Part shown: in pieces, positions 9,938-57,265 of the stretch
Numbering within the stretch: the stretch's first letter is position 1
How the letters are laid out: each line of letters starts with the position of its first letter
NCBI GenBank assembly: GCA_943358095.1
Contig: CALRGT010000001.1
Coordinates: 82,842 to 146,841, forward strand
Source: an uncultured Candidatus Saccharimonas sp.
GTDB taxonomy: Bacteria; Patescibacteriota; Saccharimonadia; Saccharimonadales; AQU-01
Direction: 5' to 3'
Length of the DNA: 64,000 bases
Position numbers and translations under genes: made by a program
The notes under the pieces: model-generated
What the model was told of the DNA's origin: nothing
The model's input: the letters and a program-made list of their open reading frames with translations, nothing else
Databases searched by the model: none

Positions 9938-10702
9938 ATGAGCAAAACAATTACACTTATCGGTTTGAGAAAATTCAATTATTTTATGGCGGCACTCCAC
10001 GGCCTCCAAGCAGTCGCCTTACTGGCATTAAGCAAAAACTTTACTCTGCCTATCAGCGCAGGCTATCTGAGCTGGGACCAGGCAGCCATGAGAGTAGTGC
10101 CACGAAGTACTGTGCTCTTTAACTTGTCGCTGCCATTACTTATCGCCATGTTCCTAATAATATCGTCGGTAGCTCATATCATAATAGCAACCGTATACAA
10201 CAAAACTTATAACGAAAACCTACAGAAGGGCATCAATAAAGCCCGTTGGTTTGAATACTCTATATCAGCAAGCATTATGATGGTTGCGATTGCATTACTA
10301 GTTGGTGTCTACGACCTTACTAGCCTAGTTATGATCTTTAGTCTTACTGCAATCATGAACTTGCTTGGACTTGTCATGGAAATACACAACCAAACAACTA
10401 CTAAGACTAACTGGGTTAGTTATTGGATAGGCTGCCTAGCAGGAATCATACCTTGGTTAGTTATAGCATTTTACTTCTGGTTGTCAGCAAGCAAGGAAAC
10501 AGCTGCACCAGTATTCGTCTACTTTATTTTTGTATCCCTCTTCATCTTCTTTAACTGCTTTGCAATCAACATGGTTTTGCAATACAAGAAGGTCGGCAAG
10601 TGGAGTAATTACCTATATGGTGAACGTGCCTATATCATCCTGAGCCTAGTTGCTAAATCTCTACTAGCATGGCAGGTATTCGGCGGCACACTTCGTCCAT
10701 AA
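9938..10702 (+). CDS. Heliorhodopsin
   Basis: Seven TM helices. Matches HeR hallmarks as I recall them: LHGLQAVALLAL (His), ARWFEYSISASIM (counter-ion Glu), SVAHIII (His), WSNYLYGERAYIILSLVAKSLLAWQVF (Schiff-base Lys). Confidence 0.9.
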   Translation: MSKTITLIGLRKFNYFMAALHGLQAVALLALSKNFTLPISAGYLSWDQAAMRVVPRSTVLFNLSLPLLIAMFLIISSVAHIIIATVYNKTYNENLQKGINKARWFEYSISASIMMVAIALLVGVYDLTSLVMIFSLTAIMNLLGLVMEIHNQTTTKTNWVSYWIGCLAGIIPWLVIAFYFWLSASKETAAPVFVYFIFVSLFIFFNCFAINMVLQYKKVGKWSNYLYGERAYIILSLVAKSLLAWQVFGGTLRP

Positions 10703-10729
10703 TGGTATTTAAAAGCACTTGCACTATGG

Positions 10730-10737
10730 TGTATAAT
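10730..10737 (+). promoter_or_regulatory. -10 element TGTATAAT of the decayed polymerase cassette
   Basis: GGTGTATAATT is identical to the 11-mer at 31031-31041 upstream of the intact cassette. Confidence 0.5.
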
Positions 10738-10977
10738 TAATTCAGCAATGGGAGCATGAACCGCAATCGCGGTCATAGTTCACGAGCTTTATTTTTCAAC
10801 TCTAGGGCGGCATACTCCGGTCACTACCTCACCCTCACATAGCTAAACCTGTAGATATAGTAACCGAACGGTTTTACTTATATCACTTTATCAGGAAGCT
10901 CACATTTAAAACCCGTTCAGCTGAACCAAATGGTCAGTTGTTCTCTTAAAGTCTACTAAATGTGAGGAGCTAGAGTT

Positions 10978-11238
10978 ATGAATCAAACAATCAACAAGCA
11001 AATTTCGGTATTATCTTATTATTTTTCTAGTGGTAACTGTGCGCGTTTCTTCCCAAAAAAAATTGAATTTGAAGGCAGCGAACTAGACCTGATCGAATCT
11101 GGTCTTAGGTGCTTGGTCAAAAAAGGCCAAAGCTTTATTCAGATATTCAACATGAGTGATGGCAACAACGAATACCGTCTAAGCTTTGAGCCAGATAATC
11201 GTGAATGGACTCTTTTAAGCATGAAAGCTCAGGCCTAG
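10978..11238 (+). CDS. Small protein, paralog 1 of a polymerase-associated family
   Basis: By-eye similarity to 31333..31599 (IN..SV..YY.S, P..I, EYRLSF..DN..W.L); SD GAGGAG. Confidence 0.6.
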   Translation: MNQTINKQISVLSYYFSSGNCARFFPKKIEFEGSELDLIESGLRCLVKKGQSFIQIFNMSDGNNEYRLSFEPDNREWTLLSMKAQA

Positions 11239-11241
11239 ACT

Positions 11242-11463
11242 ATGCAACTCACACTACAACTTGCGTCTAACAATAGCTGGGCATTTGCTAAGTACCGTCA
11301 CTATAACTATTCGATCAAACCATCATCTAATAGAAATATAATCATTACTGCTTGTTCGCGTGAGGCAAAATTACTTGGAATTAAAGCAGGTATGCATTAT
11401 GAAAAAGCCAAGACCTTAATTCCAGAAATTAAAATATTCATAATCGGAGGGACCAATGTATGA
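11242..11463 (+). pseudogene. 73-aa N-terminal remnant of a Y-family DNA polymerase
   Basis: NIIITACSREAKLLGIKAGMHYEKAKTLIPEIKIF aligns with GIIIASSYEAKALGIKLGVSVRDARLLCRDVIVM of 31580..32821. The catalytic-Asp block (MHIDLNSCFA) is degenerate (LQLASNNSWA) and the palm, finger and little-finger regions are missing. Confidence 0.6.
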
Positions 11464-11680
11464 CAAATCAAACACCGAATTGGCAGAAGTACTTAGACAC
11501 TACGGTAAAGACTTCCAAGCTTTCAAAATCAAATGGAAAGGCGTCGATTACCACATCTCGAAAATCGCACTTAAACAATCAAAGGGGATCACAACCAATA
11601 ACTTTTGCGTTCTTGAGGCAACTGACGGATTGGCTATTTTTGAAATAGTCACCCATCAACCTTGGCCAAAATTCCACTAA
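11456..11680 (+). CDS. Small protein, paralog 2 of the polymerase-associated family
   Basis: FKIKWKGVDYHISKIA resembles HLIRWQNREYLVGKIG of 31333..31599. The ATG overlaps the upstream stop (ATGTATGA). Confidence 0.5.
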   Translation: MYDKSNTELAEVLRHYGKDFQAFKIKWKGVDYHISKIALKQSKGITTNNFCVLEATDGLAIFEIVTHQPWPKFH

Positions 11681-28801: not shown

Positions 28802-30328
28802 ATGAAGTACTTTAAAAGTTTTAAGCGTGGGGTTCAGCTACACTTAGGACTGATTTTACTGATCAATAATCTTTTACTTGTAGCTATATATATAGTTGGG
28901 GCGCAGCTATTAGATCTGCCGTCTTCGATGCTAGCTATTATCCTTGCAGCTACCGCACTATTGTCGATGTTAATAATCACATTTGTATCGACAAACTATC
29001 TTAGTAAACCTATGGATACAATTGGCCGTGCTGTTAACTATGTTTCTCCAGACAAATCTGACTATGCCGCACCAGTTCTTGATGATCTAAGATTAGGGCG
29101 AGAGCTAGTCGCAGAACTTAGCAGGGAAGTTTACTCCATTGCAAGTAGCGTAAAAAACAGTCCCTTAATTAGTTCGGCACCAAACGAAAACGTGTTGATG
29201 AATAGTTTATCAATCCCGATAATTATGATGGATAAATCTCAGAAGATTACATTTATAAATACCGCAGCAAGTAATTTTATTGGCAAGGCAGCTACAGAAA
29301 TAATTAATAAAAATATGTATGACGTTTTTGATTTTTCATTTTCTAGTGACGACACATATGATTCCTGGCTGAATCAAACGCGGACGAACAGCGCTGTGGC
29401 TAGCAAATCATGGAGCCACGTAAGACTGCCATTAGCTGACCCGACAGGGCTCAAACAAATAGACATGACCGCTAGCTATAGTCTTGACAGTGCAACAGGC
29501 ACAGAAGTTACACTGACCTTATACGATAGGACACTAGACTATAGCAAGGATGATGCATCGATAAGTTTTGTGGCAATCGCCGTTCATGAGCTACGCAACC
29601 CAGTAACTCTACTTCGTGGTTATATAGACGTATTCGAAGAAGAACTTTCTGGCAAACTAAATGTTGAACTGGCTGACTTTATGATAAAAATGCAGGTAGC
29701 AGCTGGGCAATTATCGACATTCATAAATAATATCCTAAATGTGTCGCGCGTAGAAAACGATAAATTATCTTTAGAACTTAGTGAGCAAAAATGGCCAGAC
29801 ATAATACAGGGCGCGATTAATGGCATCAGTATGCGTGCAAAAGTACACAACAAGATTATTGAATTTGTAGCGCCTACTAATCTTCCGACAGTAGGGGTGG
29901 ATAGCGTTAGTATCTATGAGGTTCTAAGCAACCTGCTTGATAACGCAATAAAATATAGTGGCGACAACGCTGGCAAAATAGTGGTCAGCACGTTATTAAC
30001 CAAGGACGGTCTAGTTGAAACAAAGATTCAAGATTTTGGTGTAGGTATTTCGTCGAATGTTTTACCAAAACTCTTTGAGAAATTTTACCGCAACCATCGC
30101 ACACAAACTTCGGTCGGCGGGACAGGACTAGGACTATTTCTTAGCAAAGCAATAGTTAACGCTCATGGCGGCAACATCTGGGTAGACTCCAAGGAAGGTC
30201 AGGGATCGACATTTGGTTTCACAGTACTGCCGTATGTTATGGTTGCAAATAAATTAAAGCCCGGCAATGATGGCATAACCCGTAATGCACATGGGTGGAT
30301 CAAAAATCACTCACTTTATAGGCGATAG
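28802..30328 (+). CDS. Sensor histidine kinase (2 TM, PAS-like, HisKA, HATPase_c)
   Basis: H-box FVAIAVHELRNPVT; N-box LLDNAIKYS; G-boxes QDFGVGI and GGTGLGL. Confidence 0.85.
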   Translation: MKYFKSFKRGVQLHLGLILLINNLLLVAIYIVGAQLLDLPSSMLAIILAATALLSMLIITFVSTNYLSKPMDTIGRAVNYVSPDKSDYAAPVLDDLRLGRELVAELSREVYSIASSVKNSPLISSAPNENVLMNSLSIPIIMMDKSQKITFINTAASNFIGKAATEIINKNMYDVFDFSFSSDDTYDSWLNQTRTNSAVASKSWSHVRLPLADPTGLKQIDMTASYSLDSATGTEVTLTLYDRTLDYSKDDASISFVAIAVHELRNPVTLLRGYIDVFEEELSGKLNVELADFMIKMQVAAGQLSTFINNILNVSRVENDKLSLELSEQKWPDIIQGAINGISMRAKVHNKIIEFVAPTNLPTVGVDSVSIYEVLSNLLDNAIKYSGDNAGKIVVSTLLTKDGLVETKIQDFGVGISSNVLPKLFEKFYRNHRTQTSVGGTGLGLFLSKAIVNAHGGNIWVDSKEGQGSTFGFTVLPYVMVANKLKPGNDGITRNAHGWIKNHSLYRR

Positions 30329-30343
30329 ACAACTTATGAATGA

Positions 30344-30763
30344 ATGCTTAAATCTGCTAAAATACCTCTAATGGATACAGCTACCGATAACACCAAAACT
30401 GTACGCAAAGTCCTCTGCGTTGAAGACGAATTCTTTATTAGCGAGCTATACTCGCGCGCCCTTACAAGAGGAGGTTACCAAGTTGAAGTCGTGACAGATG
30501 GACTAAAGGGACTAGCTATGGCTATGACCAACGACTACGACATAATCTTGCTCGATATTATGGTGCCGAACATGACTGGCATAGACATACTCAGACATCT
30601 TAGAGAAGAAAAGGCCGATTTGCGGGCGAAAATTATTATCACGACGAATTTAGACCAGGGTAAAGAGAACCGCACAGATATAGAGAAACACGCTGACGGA
30701 TACATAATCAAAGCCGAGATCACTCCAAGGCAACTTGTTGAATTTTTAGATAACATCAAGTAG
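30344..30763 (+). CDS. Single-domain response regulator (CheY-like receiver)
   Basis: VLCVEDE, DIILLDIMVPNMTG, IIITT and ADGYIIKA motifs. Confidence 0.85.
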   Translation: MLKSAKIPLMDTATDNTKTVRKVLCVEDEFFISELYSRALTRGGYQVEVVTDGLKGLAMAMTNDYDIILLDIMVPNMTGIDILRHLREEKADLRAKIIITTNLDQGKENRTDIEKHADGYIIKAEITPRQLVEFLDNIK

Positions 30764-30772
30764 ATTATTTTT

Positions 30773-30795
30773 GTCCCCTGAAGGGGACTTTTTTT
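30773..30795 (+). terminator. Intrinsic terminator after the response regulator
   Basis: GTCCCC-TGAA-GGGGAC followed by seven T. Confidence 0.8.
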
Positions 30796-30797
30796 AT

Positions 30798-31016
30798 GCC
30801 ACTTTTGTCTCGGCAAAAGATGGCGCAAAACCGAGGGGCGGTGGCGACAACTCGATATAGCTTCCGAACAAGAAGCACAACACAGCCTGCGGAACTTGTC
30901 CTATCGGACTTCAGACAGTCCTCGGCAGGTAGTGTTGTTGTGCTCTTATCGGAAATCTATTTCGGGTCGTCACCAAGCCCCGTAAAAGACCATGGATGCC
31001 CGCTTAAGGCGGGCAT
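30798..31016 (+). ncRNA. Candidate structured RNA: 5' hairpin (30798-30824), long imperfect rod (30831-30983), 3' hairpin (30996-31016)
   Basis: Arms 30831-30889 and 30924-30983 pair almost continuously (GGGGC/GCCCC, GGTG/CACC, GCGAC/GTCGT, TTCCGA/TCGGAA, GCACAACA/TGTTGTGC, CCTGC/GCAGG). The 76-aa ORF here is probably spurious. Confidence 0.45.
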
Positions 31017-31032
31017 TAATTATTAACTTAGG

Positions 31033-31040
31033 TGTATAAT
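31033..31040 (+). promoter_or_regulatory. -10 element TGTATAAT of the Y-family polymerase cassette
   Basis: GGTGTATAATT directly after the 30996-31016 hairpin; the identical 11-mer occurs at 10727-10737. Confidence 0.5.
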
Positions 31041-31332
31041 TGGGTTAGTTATGTGAGTACTTTCATTCACGTGGATTTTTACTCGCAGGCTTTATTAGAT
31101 AGAGAGGCATACTCACTGAACGCCAAATGGCTTCACGTCACTGCTAACCTCAAACACATCTCGTTCAACTGACGCAGCAAGGGCTTTTGCGCTACTTCTG
31201 GTCACACGGATAATTTAAACAATACAGTTTAAATGTCCTCTTTATTATTTGTTTTTAATACATTTTCGGGCACCAAAAATACCTACAAAACACCGTAAAC
31301 TATTCTACTTAATCCTTGAAAGGATCTTAATT

Positions 31333-31599
31333 ATGCGCGAGAAAATCAACGAAGAAGTATCTGTAATTATGTACTATAGCTCGACTAAACGCCTGGCTGT
31401 GCCGCATTTAATCCGCTGGCAAAACCGCGAATATCTGGTCGGCAAGATCGGCTACCACCACACTGTTATGGAAGGCCGAGTACTGCACCACATCTACGAA
31501 TTAGCCGATAAAAATCAAGCTCTGTGGTTTAGATTGAACCTCGATACGAGTAATTTGCACTGGAGACTGGAGGCAGTTAGTGATGGAAACGCCAATTAA
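31333..31599 (+). CDS. Small protein, paralog 3 of the polymerase-associated family (88 aa)
   Basis: ATG preceded by AAAGGA. The 3' end overlaps the polymerase start by 20 nt. The ORF-track start at 31249 (TTG) is probably an over-extension. Confidence 0.6.
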   Translation: MREKINEEVSVIMYYSSTKRLAVPHLIRWQNREYLVGKIGYHHTVMEGRVLHHIYELADKNQALWFRLNLDTSNLHWRLEAVSDGNAN

Positions 31600-32821
31600 C
31601 TACAACCCGCCTATGATGATGCACATCGACCTAAACTCCTGTTTTGCCATAATCGAACAGCAGGCCAACCCTTTAATTCGCAACAAACCAGTAGCGATTG
31701 CGGCCTACGACACGCCCAGGGGTATCATAATCGCTTCTAGCTACGAAGCCAAAGCTTTGGGCATAAAACTTGGCGTTAGCGTTCGTGACGCTCGCTTGTT
31801 GTGCAGGGACGTCATAGTGATGACACCCGACCCAGAAAAATACTTTGATGCACATCGTCGATTCAAGCGAGTATTACAAAACTACACGGACTCGGTAACG
31901 CCAAAATCAGTTGACGAATTTGTTATCGATTTCCGCGGCTCACCAGCAGTAAAGCGAGGCAAAAGTTTGCAAGAAATCGGTTTTGAAATTAAAAGCGACA
32001 TCAAGCAGGCTATCGGTGAATATGTAACGGTTAATGTCGGAATTGGACCTAACCGCTTTTTAGCCAAATTAGCAGCTGGCTTAAATAAACCTGACGGCCT
32101 GGACACTATTAATGGCGATAATCTGCGCGAAACCTACGCAAAACTTCAACTCATCGATTTGCCAGGAATTAACACTCGCTACAGTGCTAGACTAAATGCC
32201 GCCAATATTTACACGCCAATACAGTTTCTTGACGCACCCATGCCACTACTCAAGAAAAGGGTATTCAAAAGTGTCGTTGGATTCTATTGGTATTTGCGGT
32301 TGCGAGGACATGAGATTGATCAGGTTGACTTTGGCCGCAAAAGCTTTGGCCAACAATATGCGCTAGGCGACAAAACTTCTGATCCAGAACAATTATCACG
32401 CCTACTAATGAAGCTCTGTGAAAAAGCTGGCCGGCGTCTACGAAAGGGTGGCTACGTGGCTGGCGGAATACATCTTTGGTTGAATTTCGAGAACCGCACA
32501 TACTACGCTCAAGGCAAAAAACTACATAGAGACATCTACTCAACTCAGGATATTTATTTGGCAGCTCAAAGAATTTTAAGCAACGTCTCTATTCCGGCTC
32601 GCGTCACCAATATTGGCGTCACCGTCATCGACTTACACCCTAGCAATCCTGAACAACTAGGGCTATTCGACGACAGCCGACTAGACACCCGCAGTCTGGC
32701 TCGAGCAGCCGACTTAATCAACGATCGCTACGGCGAGTTCACGCTAGTGCCAGCCATTATGGCTAATATGCAAGACACTGTTTTGAAGCGAGTAGCTTTT
32801 GGTAGCATCCGCGACCTATAG
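31580..32821 (+). CDS. Y-family (translesion) DNA polymerase, DinB/UmuC-like
   Basis: MHIDLNSCFAIIEQ, SYEAKALGIK, SVDEFVIDF, VNVGIGPNRFLAKLAAGLNKPDG and LPGIN motifs. Confidence 0.88.
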   Translation: MMETPINYNPPMMMHIDLNSCFAIIEQQANPLIRNKPVAIAAYDTPRGIIIASSYEAKALGIKLGVSVRDARLLCRDVIVMTPDPEKYFDAHRRFKRVLQNYTDSVTPKSVDEFVIDFRGSPAVKRGKSLQEIGFEIKSDIKQAIGEYVTVNVGIGPNRFLAKLAAGLNKPDGLDTINGDNLRETYAKLQLIDLPGINTRYSARLNAANIYTPIQFLDAPMPLLKKRVFKSVVGFYWYLRLRGHEIDQVDFGRKSFGQQYALGDKTSDPEQLSRLLMKLCEKAGRRLRKGGYVAGGIHLWLNFENRTYYAQGKKLHRDIYSTQDIYLAAQRILSNVSIPARVTNIGVTVIDLHPSNPEQLGLFDDSRLDTRSLARAADLINDRYGEFTLVPAIMANMQDTVLKRVAFGSIRDL

Positions 32822-56175: not shown

Positions 56176-56335
56176 ATTTTTGTTTTTGTTTCTTTTTATT
56201 TTTGATGACTAAGACCTAGTGCTAGCTATTTTTGCAAGCACTAGGTCGTTATCTGTGAACTAAAGTACTCTTACGTGTACTTTAAAGGCACGGGAAGCAT
56301 TTTTAACCTGGATTGGCATAATACTCTTCCTTTCT

Positions 56336-57265
56336 TTATTTTGTTTTTATTTTAAATACGGCTCGAAGTTTTGCACTTCTTGCTCGTGGATTGGAAACTA
56401 TTTCATCTGGATCACCCACAACAGGTTTTTTGGTAAGTATTTTGATGATCGCATCGTATGTGTCGCTGCCGTATTCGGCAAACGCATTTTTGACTAGCCT
56501 GTCTTCTAAGCTATGGAAGCTTATTATTGCAAGCCGTCCACCGGGTTTAAGCAATTGTATCCATAATGGTATCGCCTGCTCAATTTGTCTAAGCTCATCG
56601 TTAACTTCAATACGTAACGCCTGAAAGACTCTTGTTGCTGGATGTACTTTGCTCTTACTGGGACCTGCGCTTGCGATTACAGCGGCTAAATCTTTTGTTG
56701 TATGCAGAGGTCTATTTTGAACTATATGACGTGCAATTTTGAAAGCTTTTGGTTCTTCACCGTATTGCAATATAACCTTTGCTAAATCTGACTGACTATA
56801 GCTATTAACTATCATGTCTGCTGTCAGCTTTTGACTCTGATTCATTCGCATATCCAGTGGACCATTATTATTAATGGAAAAACCTCGGCTAGCAATGTTA
56901 AGGTGCGGTGACGATACCCCTAAGTCTGCAAGTATTAAGTCAAAACTTTGATTTTGATCTATTAATTCTTTTGTAGAACCTAGAAAGTCGCCGTGACTTA
57001 ATGTCACATTATCGCTCTTAAATTTGTCCTGCAGATAATTTATCGCATTGATGTCGCGATCTACTAATACTGCCGGTCCATTTAATGTGCGTCCAAGTAT
57101 TTGCTCGGCATGTCCGCCGTATCCTGCCGTTAAGTCCAGATAATTATCTCCTGGCTTTGGGTCTAGATACTGAAGAACTTGCTCCATCAATACTGGAATG
57201 TGTTCGCCTGACTCCCCTAAAGGTTCGTCAGTGGTGTTTTGTTTTTTTGGTGTACTTTTTTGCAT
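56336..57265 (-). CDS. rsmH: 16S rRNA (cytosine1402-N4)-methyltransferase
   Basis: HIPVLMEQVLQYL, DLTAGYGGHA, DLGVSSPHL and ISFHSLEDRLVK motifs. Confidence 0.9.
   Translation of the reverse strand: MQKSTPKKQNTTDEPLGESGEHIPVLMEQVLQYLDPKPGDNYLDLTAGYGGHAEQILGRTLNGPAVLVDRDINAINYLQDKFKSDNVTLSHGDFLGSTKELIDQNQSFDLILADLGVSSPHLNIASRGFSINNNGPLDMRMNQSQKLTADMIVNSYSQSDLAKVILQYGEEPKAFKIARHIVQNRPLHTTKDLAAVIASAGPSKSKVHPATRVFQALRIEVNDELRQIEQAIPLWIQLLKPGGRLAIISFHSLEDRLVKNAFAEYGSDTYDAIIKILTKKPVVGDPDEIVSNPRARSAKLRAVFKIKTK

Follow-up and report, generated by a model that had tools for sequence, protein, structure and literature searches.

Damage tolerance and stress-induced mutagenesis are the work of translesion polymerases. 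These enzymes are classically under LexA, and to our knowledge their control is understood almost wholly through LexA/RecA and the partner proteins UmuD, YolD and ImuA. Here we describe a small-gene cassette at positions 10,703 to 11,680 of a 64,000-nucleotide (nt) stretch of DNA from an uncultured Candidatus Saccharimonas sp. (contig CALRGT010000001.1, positions 82,842 to 146,841; hereafter the window), in which a leader RNA is followed by three small open reading frames (ORFs), the middle one being a 73-amino-acid (aa) relative of the N-terminus of Y-family polymerases that we refer to as the stub or mini-IMS. A second cassette in the window, at 31043-32821, carries a full-length DinB-like polymerase. 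Two described arrangements are comparable: in other bacteria UmuD or YolD sits directly upstream of Y-family polymerase genes, and ImuB, a Y-family derivative without the catalytic residues, is kept for a non-catalytic role in a mutagenesis module (PMC6511836). When compared to these, the locus represents a variant form of translesion-synthesis module in which three components are undescribed, namely the mini-IMS family, the small proteins of the A, B and C types and the leader RNA, and our literature searches returned no description of any of them.

The mini-IMS resembles ImuB in being a catalytically dead Y-family derivative, here known from sequence and model. However, ImuB keeps the whole polymerase fold together with a C-terminal extension containing a RecA-NT-like motif and is encoded with imuA and dnaE2, whereas the mini-IMS comprises about 75 aa, has no thumb, little finger or C-tail, and has unrelated small beta proteins as neighbours. 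We found neither a full-length inactive fold nor an ImuB-C region nor an imuA-imuB-dnaE2 context for the stub, and a gene of DnaE2 length was absent from the called genes of the related loci L001-L004 and from the plus-strand downstream ORFs of the other loci. The A- and B-type ORFs, in turn, are comparable to UmuD', YolD and YqjX in that they are small, all-beta and located directly upstream of a Y-family polymerase gene, which they often overlap, but they show no Peptidase_S24 or YolD (PF08863) similarity at E<=1 and no PDB fold match. Moreover, many loci encode a true UmuD homologue alongside the A-type ORF, which is therefore an additional component and not a replacement. The leader shares with riboswitches and other attenuation leaders, among them T-box elements, ribosomal-protein leaders and the candidate motifs of the Breaker lab, a multi-helix architecture in the 5' untranslated region (UTR), a pseudoknot, a hairpin and U-tract just before the Shine-Dalgarno sequence and a coherent gene set. 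Unlike known riboswitches and attenuators, it has no match in Rfam 15 and the genes under its putative control are translesion polymerases; a survey of 224 motifs describes no motif associated with translesion synthesis or otherwise comparable (PMC5737381). Finally, the stub looks like the truncated polymerase pseudogenes flagged by annotation pipelines, i.e. a Y-family gene without its C-terminal 80%, but differs from them in being under purifying selection and in a length that is conserved across a phylum-level group.

A putative stand-alone fragment of a DinB-like polymerase

The first-pass annotation had regarded the 73-aa ORF as homologous to the N-terminus of the full-length polymerase only, and this was borne out by three comparisons. 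The stub matched the Pfam profile PF00817 (IMS) with 25.5 bits, above the gathering score of 23.2, over profile positions 30-64 of 148 only, and no match to IMS_C was found in it. BLASTP aligned stub residues 34-63 with residues 49-78 of the polymerase (47% identity, E 3e-5), and positions 33-69 of the hidden Markov model (HMM) of the stub family aligned with residues 44-80 of the same protein. The annotation had also described the catalytic-Asp block as degenerate and everything beyond about 70 residues as lost, and we can confirm both points: where the 'HIDLN' block of the polymerase has its Asp, the stub has Q6, and the stub ends before the S-I-D-E block, from which nothing onward is present. 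Across the family this beta-1 Asp position is occupied by Q in the window and by N, Q or D in relatives, with Q or N in most members. Thus, of the hallmarks of the Y family, the stub has the IMS match and lacks the catalytic carboxylates and a complete palm, thumb and little finger. Since the catalytic residues, thumb and little finger are absent, polymerase activity of the stub is predicted to be excluded.

The stub-family HMM scored the DinB-like polymerases of the lineage with 17-31 bits and the UmuC-like ones with 2-9 bits, which argues for an origin of the stub in the DinB-like clade, the same clade to which the full-length polymerase of the window is assigned. The latter was matched by the NCBIfam Pol IV models, all below their cut-offs. 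When the family profile was compared with PDB sequences, only Y-family polymerases were recovered, for example residues 47-70 of Dpo4, which we take to be the fingers segment touching the incoming nucleotide. An AlphaFold (AF2) model of the stub, built from a 79-sequence alignment, reached a predicted local distance difference test score (pLDDT) of 77, with two strands, two helices and a third strand following one another in this order; its best PDB matches were all to the N-terminus of Pol eta (template modelling score 0.60, 63 columns, E 4.5e-4). According to this model, the stub would keep strand beta-1 and the fingers subdomain of the polymerase, but neither the catalytic carboxylates nor the remainder of the palm, and both thumb and little finger would be absent.

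To what extent the stub is conserved became apparent from a profile search against 5.8 billion proteins, which yielded at least 130 sequence clusters, every one of them 71-134 aa long; most members carry a precomputed PF00817 hit. A single-sequence search with the stub recovered its own cluster only, and the family surfaced only with the profile. At the same operon position, the stub was found in at least 10 divergent Saccharibacteria loci with a GC content of 40-53%. It lies between an A-type and a B- or C-type ORF in L001, L003, L005-L007, L013, L015-L017 and the metagenome loci L068 and L080, and directly follows the leader, with no A-type ORF in between, in L026, L034, L043, L064, L066 and L076, so that an operon can begin with the stub. 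In L043, the stub has a C-type ORF behind it, and a B-type ORF begins separately, about 700 nt downstream of the leader. An alignment of ten stub ORFs revealed invariant Q2, W13-A14-F15, I35, S39, E41-A42, G46, G50-M51, A56 and P61, with a variable basic linker between the two conserved blocks, and in the 79 family members W13, A16, I35, S39, A42, G46, G50, M51, A56 and P61 are invariant.

For all comparisons with a sister strain we used locus L005 (GenBank JBAXJI010000004.1), the gene order of which is colinear with the window. Here the stub differed by 13 synonymous and 4 non-synonymous changes, giving a ratio of non-synonymous to synonymous rates (dN/dS) of 0.07. This equals the value for the neighbouring TerC gene (0.07), the stub being equally constrained, while heliorhodopsin had a dN/dS of 0.02. 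Between the stubs of L015 and L016, the proportion of non-synonymous differences (pN) was 0.14, with synonymous sites saturated. All 15 protein variants in the 90% cluster of the stub have 73 aa, and their variation is confined to positions 19-34 (linker) and 65-72 (tail). These data point to an old, widespread and length-conserved gene family under purifying selection. The low dN/dS, the at least 130 clusters of the same length and the constant size of the 15 variants argue therefore against a recent deletion or a drifting pseudogene, and none of the usual marks of a pseudogene, i.e. neutral dN/dS, variable truncation points or restriction to one lineage, was observed. The suggestion of a decayed copy, formed by recent deletion between tandem cassettes, consequently did not survive the dN/dS value, the number of clusters and the recurrence in ten or more divergent loci. 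Comparison across strains had been suggested as a way to find an intact ancestor; in the loci compared, the same short stub recurs at the same position. The alternative offered alongside, retention of the small proteins for a function of their own, fared better, and selection and length conservation extend it to the stub itself. In L057, 266-1545 nt downstream of the RNA, a DinB-like gene appears to be broken into two ORFs, one of 358 aa and one of 67 aa, unlike the clean mini-IMS ORFs; it is possibly a genuine pseudogene or a sequencing error.

The view that the cassette is a paralogous second copy of the full-length cassette held up, given the paralogy of ORF1 and the shared leader. Alignment of 10703-11680 with 30764-31800 at the nucleotide level recovered the promoter and leader blocks only, so that cassette-to-cassette homology extends to the stub and ORF1 as proteins, whereas nucleotide likeness is limited to promoter and leader. 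A recent duplication or deletion between the cassettes was rejected, as the coding parts are too diverged at the nucleotide level.

The leader RNA and the operons it heads

The interval 10703-10977 had been annotated as promoter and leader. Both are present, but the leader is not a simple one, and covariation instead indicates a conserved structured RNA. All 20 related loci have a TATAAT or TATACT box at a distance of 235-270 nt before the first ORF. Of the 275 nt that separate the heliorhodopsin stop codon from ORF1, only 8 are changed in the sister strain, none of them within 10841-10977, while the synonymous divergence (dS) of the flanking genes is 0.25-0.47. The leader comprises helix P1 (about 10744-10788), helix P2 (10805-10834; with a UCCG loop in the window and UUCG in most relatives), helices P3/P4 (10841-10900) and P5, a terminator-like hairpin at 10919-10940 that is followed by a U-rich tail, with a GAGGAG Shine-Dalgarno sequence at 10964-10969. 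In addition, the P4 loop GAACGG (10866-10871) pairs with CCGUUC (10913-10918) to form a pseudoknot.

Each segment of the leader gives the same hairpin in 19 aligned loci despite differing sequence. In our alignment A6, 87.6% of the cells were paired, when compared to 31-44% in slid controls, and 20 of 37 pairs had changed on both sides; on four of five measures, none of 500 shuffles of A6 came up to the value observed. Extension to 72 distinct sequences gave 85.8% paired cells versus 28-40% in the controls, changes on both sides in 26 of 31 pairs and a covariation score of 0.42 versus 0.04-0.09. The pseudoknot occurs on A6 in variant forms as well (three GAGCGG/CCGCUC, one GGACGG/CCGUCC). The minimum free energy (MFE) of the window leader had a z-score of -3.46. 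Downstream of P5, the next 12 nt contain 58% T versus 29% overall, and 6 or more of these 12 positions are T in 64 of the 72 sequences. A covariance model, R1, scored 127 bits on the leader, and its match ends at the ORF1 start codon. Rfam 15 (4227 families) contained nothing at gathering thresholds, and at E<=10 only the unrelated, sub-threshold snoU49, RyhB, COG3860 and sR46 appeared. We conclude that the leader represents a conserved and, as judged by sequence comparison, previously undescribed structured RNA. Of the features expected of a riboswitch-type element, it displays covarying structure, a 5' UTR position, a coherent gene set and a putative expression platform.

In the single-sequence MFE fold, CUCUAG (10800-10805, upstream of P2) pairs with CUAGAG (10970-10975, between the Shine-Dalgarno sequence and the ATG), a pairing of the window leader that is not kept in other loci. 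We also considered and rejected two candidate operators. The perfect palindrome GTTCAGCTGAAC at 10916-10927, considered as a LexA-type operator, runs from the last bases of CCGUUC into the 5' strand of the P5 stem; its sequence covaries across loci, and it does not represent a conserved operator. A TTGTG-N8-CACAA repeat, present in a few loci, was absent from 74 of 74 promoters checked.

A second R1 match in the window (31043-31335, 40.6 bits, E 2e-9) heads the full-length cassette. This copy has kept P1 and P2, with the P2 loop enlarged by a 23-nt insert, and is diverged in its 3' half, and both leaders of the window share the promoter block GGTGTATAATT. A weak third match on the minus strand (56317-56376, 11.5 bits, E 0.063) is probably due to chance. 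Beyond the window, a pattern scan of metagenomes gave 105 stretches, 80 of which were taken as loci, and R1 confirmed 78 of these 80. Downstream genes could be tallied for 72 of the 78 loci, the other six having too little downstream sequence. The next genes were of the A, B, stub or UmuD types in 71 of 72 loci; the exception, L077, has none within 1343 nt downstream. The contexts included A-UmuD-PolY (22 loci), A-UmuD at a contig end (10), A-type alone (14), A-PolY (5), B-PolY (5) and A-B with or without PolY (5). Thus, in all but one of these 72 loci, the leader RNA is tied to translesion-polymerase operons or their small ORFs. In loci of the UmuDC type (e.g. L024, L029, L037, L051, L060 and L083), a conserved GT[AG]GCAAAAATCACGTTGCA block lies about 40-60 nt upstream of the RNA, over the -35 region, and might act as an operator or as an UP-like element; GT[AG]GCAAAAATCACGTTGCA is absent from both promoters of the window.

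The flanking small proteins and the layout of the locus

In most loci, the leader is followed first by ORF1. This ORF has 26 homologues with 44-100% identity, is identical to an NCBI protein from a metagenome-assembled genome and differs from the sister strain by 17 synonymous and no non-synonymous changes. Of the three small ORFs, ORF1 and the stub are thus constrained, and constraint is relaxed in ORF3 (dN/dS 0.54). The AF2 model of ORF1 (pLDDT 88) is all-beta with seven strands and had no significant PDB fold match in Foldseek. ORF1 is paralogous to the small ORF upstream of the full-length polymerase (the 31330 ORF; BLASTP E 5e-11), and A-type and B-type profiles matched each other with an hhalign probability of 97.3%. 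ORF3 is a weaker member of the superfamily (BLASTP E 0.078 against the 31330 ORF), with a better match to the syntenic third ORF of L017 (E 6e-6); the B-type ORFs of L013 and L017 that it matches hold the same position, and the order stub-then-B recurs in L013, L017, L026, L034, L066, L068 and L076. Nine population variants of ORF3 all have 74 aa and an invariant core. At the 50%-identity level, the A/B superfamily comprises 342 representatives, nearly all of 70-110 aa. We found no Pfam or NCBIfam match at E<=1 for ORF1, ORF3 or the 31330 ORF, Peptidase_S24 and YolD (PF08863) included, and none in Pfam for ten diverse superfamily members, save for an unrelated methyltransferase domain in one longer protein. 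No PDB relative of the superfamily was detected by sequence or by Foldseek. Together, these comparisons suggest that ORF1, ORF3 and the 31330 ORF belong to one superfamily of predicted all-beta proteins of about 85 aa, typically encoded just upstream of DinB-like or UmuDC-like genes.

Such an A- or B-type ORF immediately precedes a Y-family polymerase gene in the full-length cassette (31330-31599 before 31580-32821) and in at least 45 related loci, and the A/B proteins head operons of the A-UmuD-UmuC, A/B-DinB, A-stub-B or A-stub-C-UmuD-UmuC type. In the 10978-11680 locus, the stub is the sole polymerase-derived gene. The C type is a short family with the core motif [ED]TP[FLI], which many loci carry ahead of UmuD, behind the A-type gene or the stub. 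In this respect, we noticed that a frame overlapping ORF3 (11460-11648) is open both in the window and in the sister strain, although absent from all gene-caller predictions. Its product matches the 61-aa third ORF of L001 (BLASTP E 3e-5), and its N-terminus bears the motif W..Y[ILV][DE]T[PT][VLI], which reads NWQKYLDT[TP]VKT in the window and L005. Over the first 21 codons, dN/dS against the sister strain was 0.15 in the alternative frame versus 1.41 in the ORF3 frame. A single GGAGG Shine-Dalgarno sequence at 11446-11450 could serve the ATGs of both ORF3 and the alternative frame. The overlap of the two frames at 11456/11460 may reflect dual coding or the remnant of a C-type gene, and the third gene is the least certain part of the cassette.

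The coordinates confirm the order promoter/leader, small ORF, 73-aa stub and small ORF beside heliorhodopsin, as first annotated, and direct reading of the sequence verifies the compact junctions: ORF1 and the stub are separated by a 3-nt gap (TAG-ACT-ATG), and the stub and ORF3 overlap by 8 nt (ATGTATGA). ORF1 and the stub share a reading frame with only TAG ACT between them, and read-through of the TAG would yield a fusion; such a fusion by stop-codon read-through was dropped as a candidate, the frames differing in L001 and L007. The proximity of heliorhodopsin appears to be incidental, because other lineages have GMP synthase (L001) or a two-component system (L003) on that side. A histidine kinase and response regulator adjoin the leader or translesion operon at 28802-30763 of the window (next to the full-length cassette), at 1606-3558 of L003 and at 6361-8252 of L004, and this recurrent synteny might provide an extra regulatory input.

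Table 1. Features of the two cassettes and their neighbours in the window.
Feature	Position	Strand	Remarks
Heliorhodopsin gene	9938-10702		Pfam PF18761, E 9e-99; upstream neighbour of the small-ORF cassette
Sigma-70-like promoter	10709-10737	+	TTAAAA, 17-nt spacer, TATAAT preceded by TG; 10/12 positions in scan
Structured leader RNA, about 240 nt	10740-10977	+	Indicated by conservation, shared hairpins and covariation
ORF1, A-type small protein (predicted all-beta), 86 aa	10978-11238	+	
Mini-IMS (stub), 73 aa	11242-11463	+	Putative stand-alone N-terminal fragment of a DinB-like Y-family polymerase, predicted catalytically dead
ORF3, B-type small protein, 74 aa	11456-11680	+	Putative superfamily of ORF1 and the 31330-31599 ORF
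Alternative-frame ORF, 62 aa, status uncertain	11460-11648	+	Overlaps ORF3; C-type motif at N-terminus
TerC gene	from 11738		Downstream of the cassette
Second, more diverged leader copy	31043-31329	+	Heads the full-length cassette
B-type small ORF, 89 aa from ATG	31330-31599	+	Its 3' end overlaps the polymerase gene
Full-length DinB-like Y-family polymerase, 413 aa	31580-32821	+	Pfam IMS 2e-32, IMS_C 8e-17

Proposed function and alternative explanations

Considering these data, we think it probable that 10709-11680 is an intact, selected operon with a promoter, a structured leader and three coupled small genes, the middle one being a domesticated fragment of a DinB-like polymerase, and we propose roles for the leader and for polymerase mimicry as follows. 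The leader would control expression by transcription attenuation in response to some ligand, protein or damage signal, and would co-regulate the operon with the polymerase operon at 31043-32821. One operon of the pair encodes a DinB-like polymerase with a B-type partner, and the other an A-type protein, a dead polymerase fragment and a B/C-type protein. The role of the mini-protein is probably non-catalytic and regulatory: it might mimic the N-terminal surface of the polymerase and bind the A/B-type partners, or the DNA or dNTP normally held by the fingers, and the mimicry would thereby tune access or activity of the full-length enzyme.

Several points weigh against this model. The mimic or decoy role that we infer for the mini-protein draws on analogy and operon position only, and the first 12 residues of its structural model are of low confidence. 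ORF3, with its relaxed dN/dS, overlaps a second conserved frame, which makes the third gene ambiguous. As to the RNA, the metagenome pattern fixed GAACGG and limited its partner to CCGYYC, and pseudoknot covariation was therefore judged on A6 only. The switching mechanism we infer for the leader comes with no anti-terminator pairing, an all-against-all column scan for such a helix having returned nothing convincing beyond P1-P5 and the pseudoknot, and the leader could be a protein-binding autoregulatory site and not a riboswitch. In a bolder version of the model, which we regard as doubtful, the leader would belong to a new class of riboswitches, or would be an attenuator responding to a protein or to damage, and would take the place of LexA control of mutagenic polymerases in Saccharibacteria or add to it; the mini-IMS, as a stand-alone fingers subdomain, would gate the full-length translesion polymerases via the A/B proteins.

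Given that the genes are small, overlapping and tightly coupled, and that their neighbours vary between heliorhodopsin, GMP synthase (L001) and a two-component system (L003), the small ORFs might instead form a selfish element or a defence module, for example a toxin-antitoxin pair, beside repair genes, with the polymerase likeness incidental to function. We consider this improbable: bona fide UmuDC and DinB operons begin with this same leader RNA and with the same A/B proteins, and no toxin or antitoxin family match was obtained in Pfam or NCBIfam (PADLOC was not searched). A split polymerase, in which the mini-protein would provide the fingers in trans to a Y-family protein without N-terminus and so rebuild an active enzyme, would fit a fragment that is a discrete structural unit encoded in tightly coupled genes. 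However, every Y-family gene in the window and related loci has a complete N-terminus, no gene downstream of the stub could supply the remaining domains, and most members have Q or N at the beta-1 Asp position, so that we regard this scenario as very improbable.

The notion of a still-open remnant of a recently truncated polymerase, left by deletion between tandem cassettes, draws on the match to the first ~80 polymerase residues only, the lost catalytic Asp and the paralogy with the cassette at 31043-32821, but it is barely tenable in view of at least 130 clusters of the same short length, the same truncation point and motifs in loci of 40-53% GC, a dN/dS of 0.07 and 15 within-cluster variants all of 73 aa. 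Equally hard to sustain is the idea that 11242-11463 is conserved as an RNA or DNA element, such as an extension of the strongly conserved RNA directly upstream, as the differences from L005 are mostly synonymous (13 versus 4), the protein motifs are kept even though the DNA has diverged to saturation, the R1 match stops at the ORF1 start codon and the AF2 model is a confident Y-family-like fold.

The intact-operon reading has consequences for how polymerase fragments are treated. One survey explicitly left out 'fragments' (PMC6511836), and a polymerase fragment kept as a separate gene is missed by design in surveys that discard them; in genomes of the candidate phyla radiation, short PF00817-positive ORFs should not be annotated as pseudogenes by default. 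The locus further adds phylum-wide, unannotated small partner proteins and a large structured RNA dedicated to translesion-polymerase operons. Should this RNA respond to a metabolite or a damage signal, it would provide the first case of riboswitch-like control over mutagenic polymerases, and, if the bolder version of the model is true, the mini-IMS would represent a new kind of polymerase-derived regulator within an RNA-controlled mutasome architecture undescribed in any bacterium.

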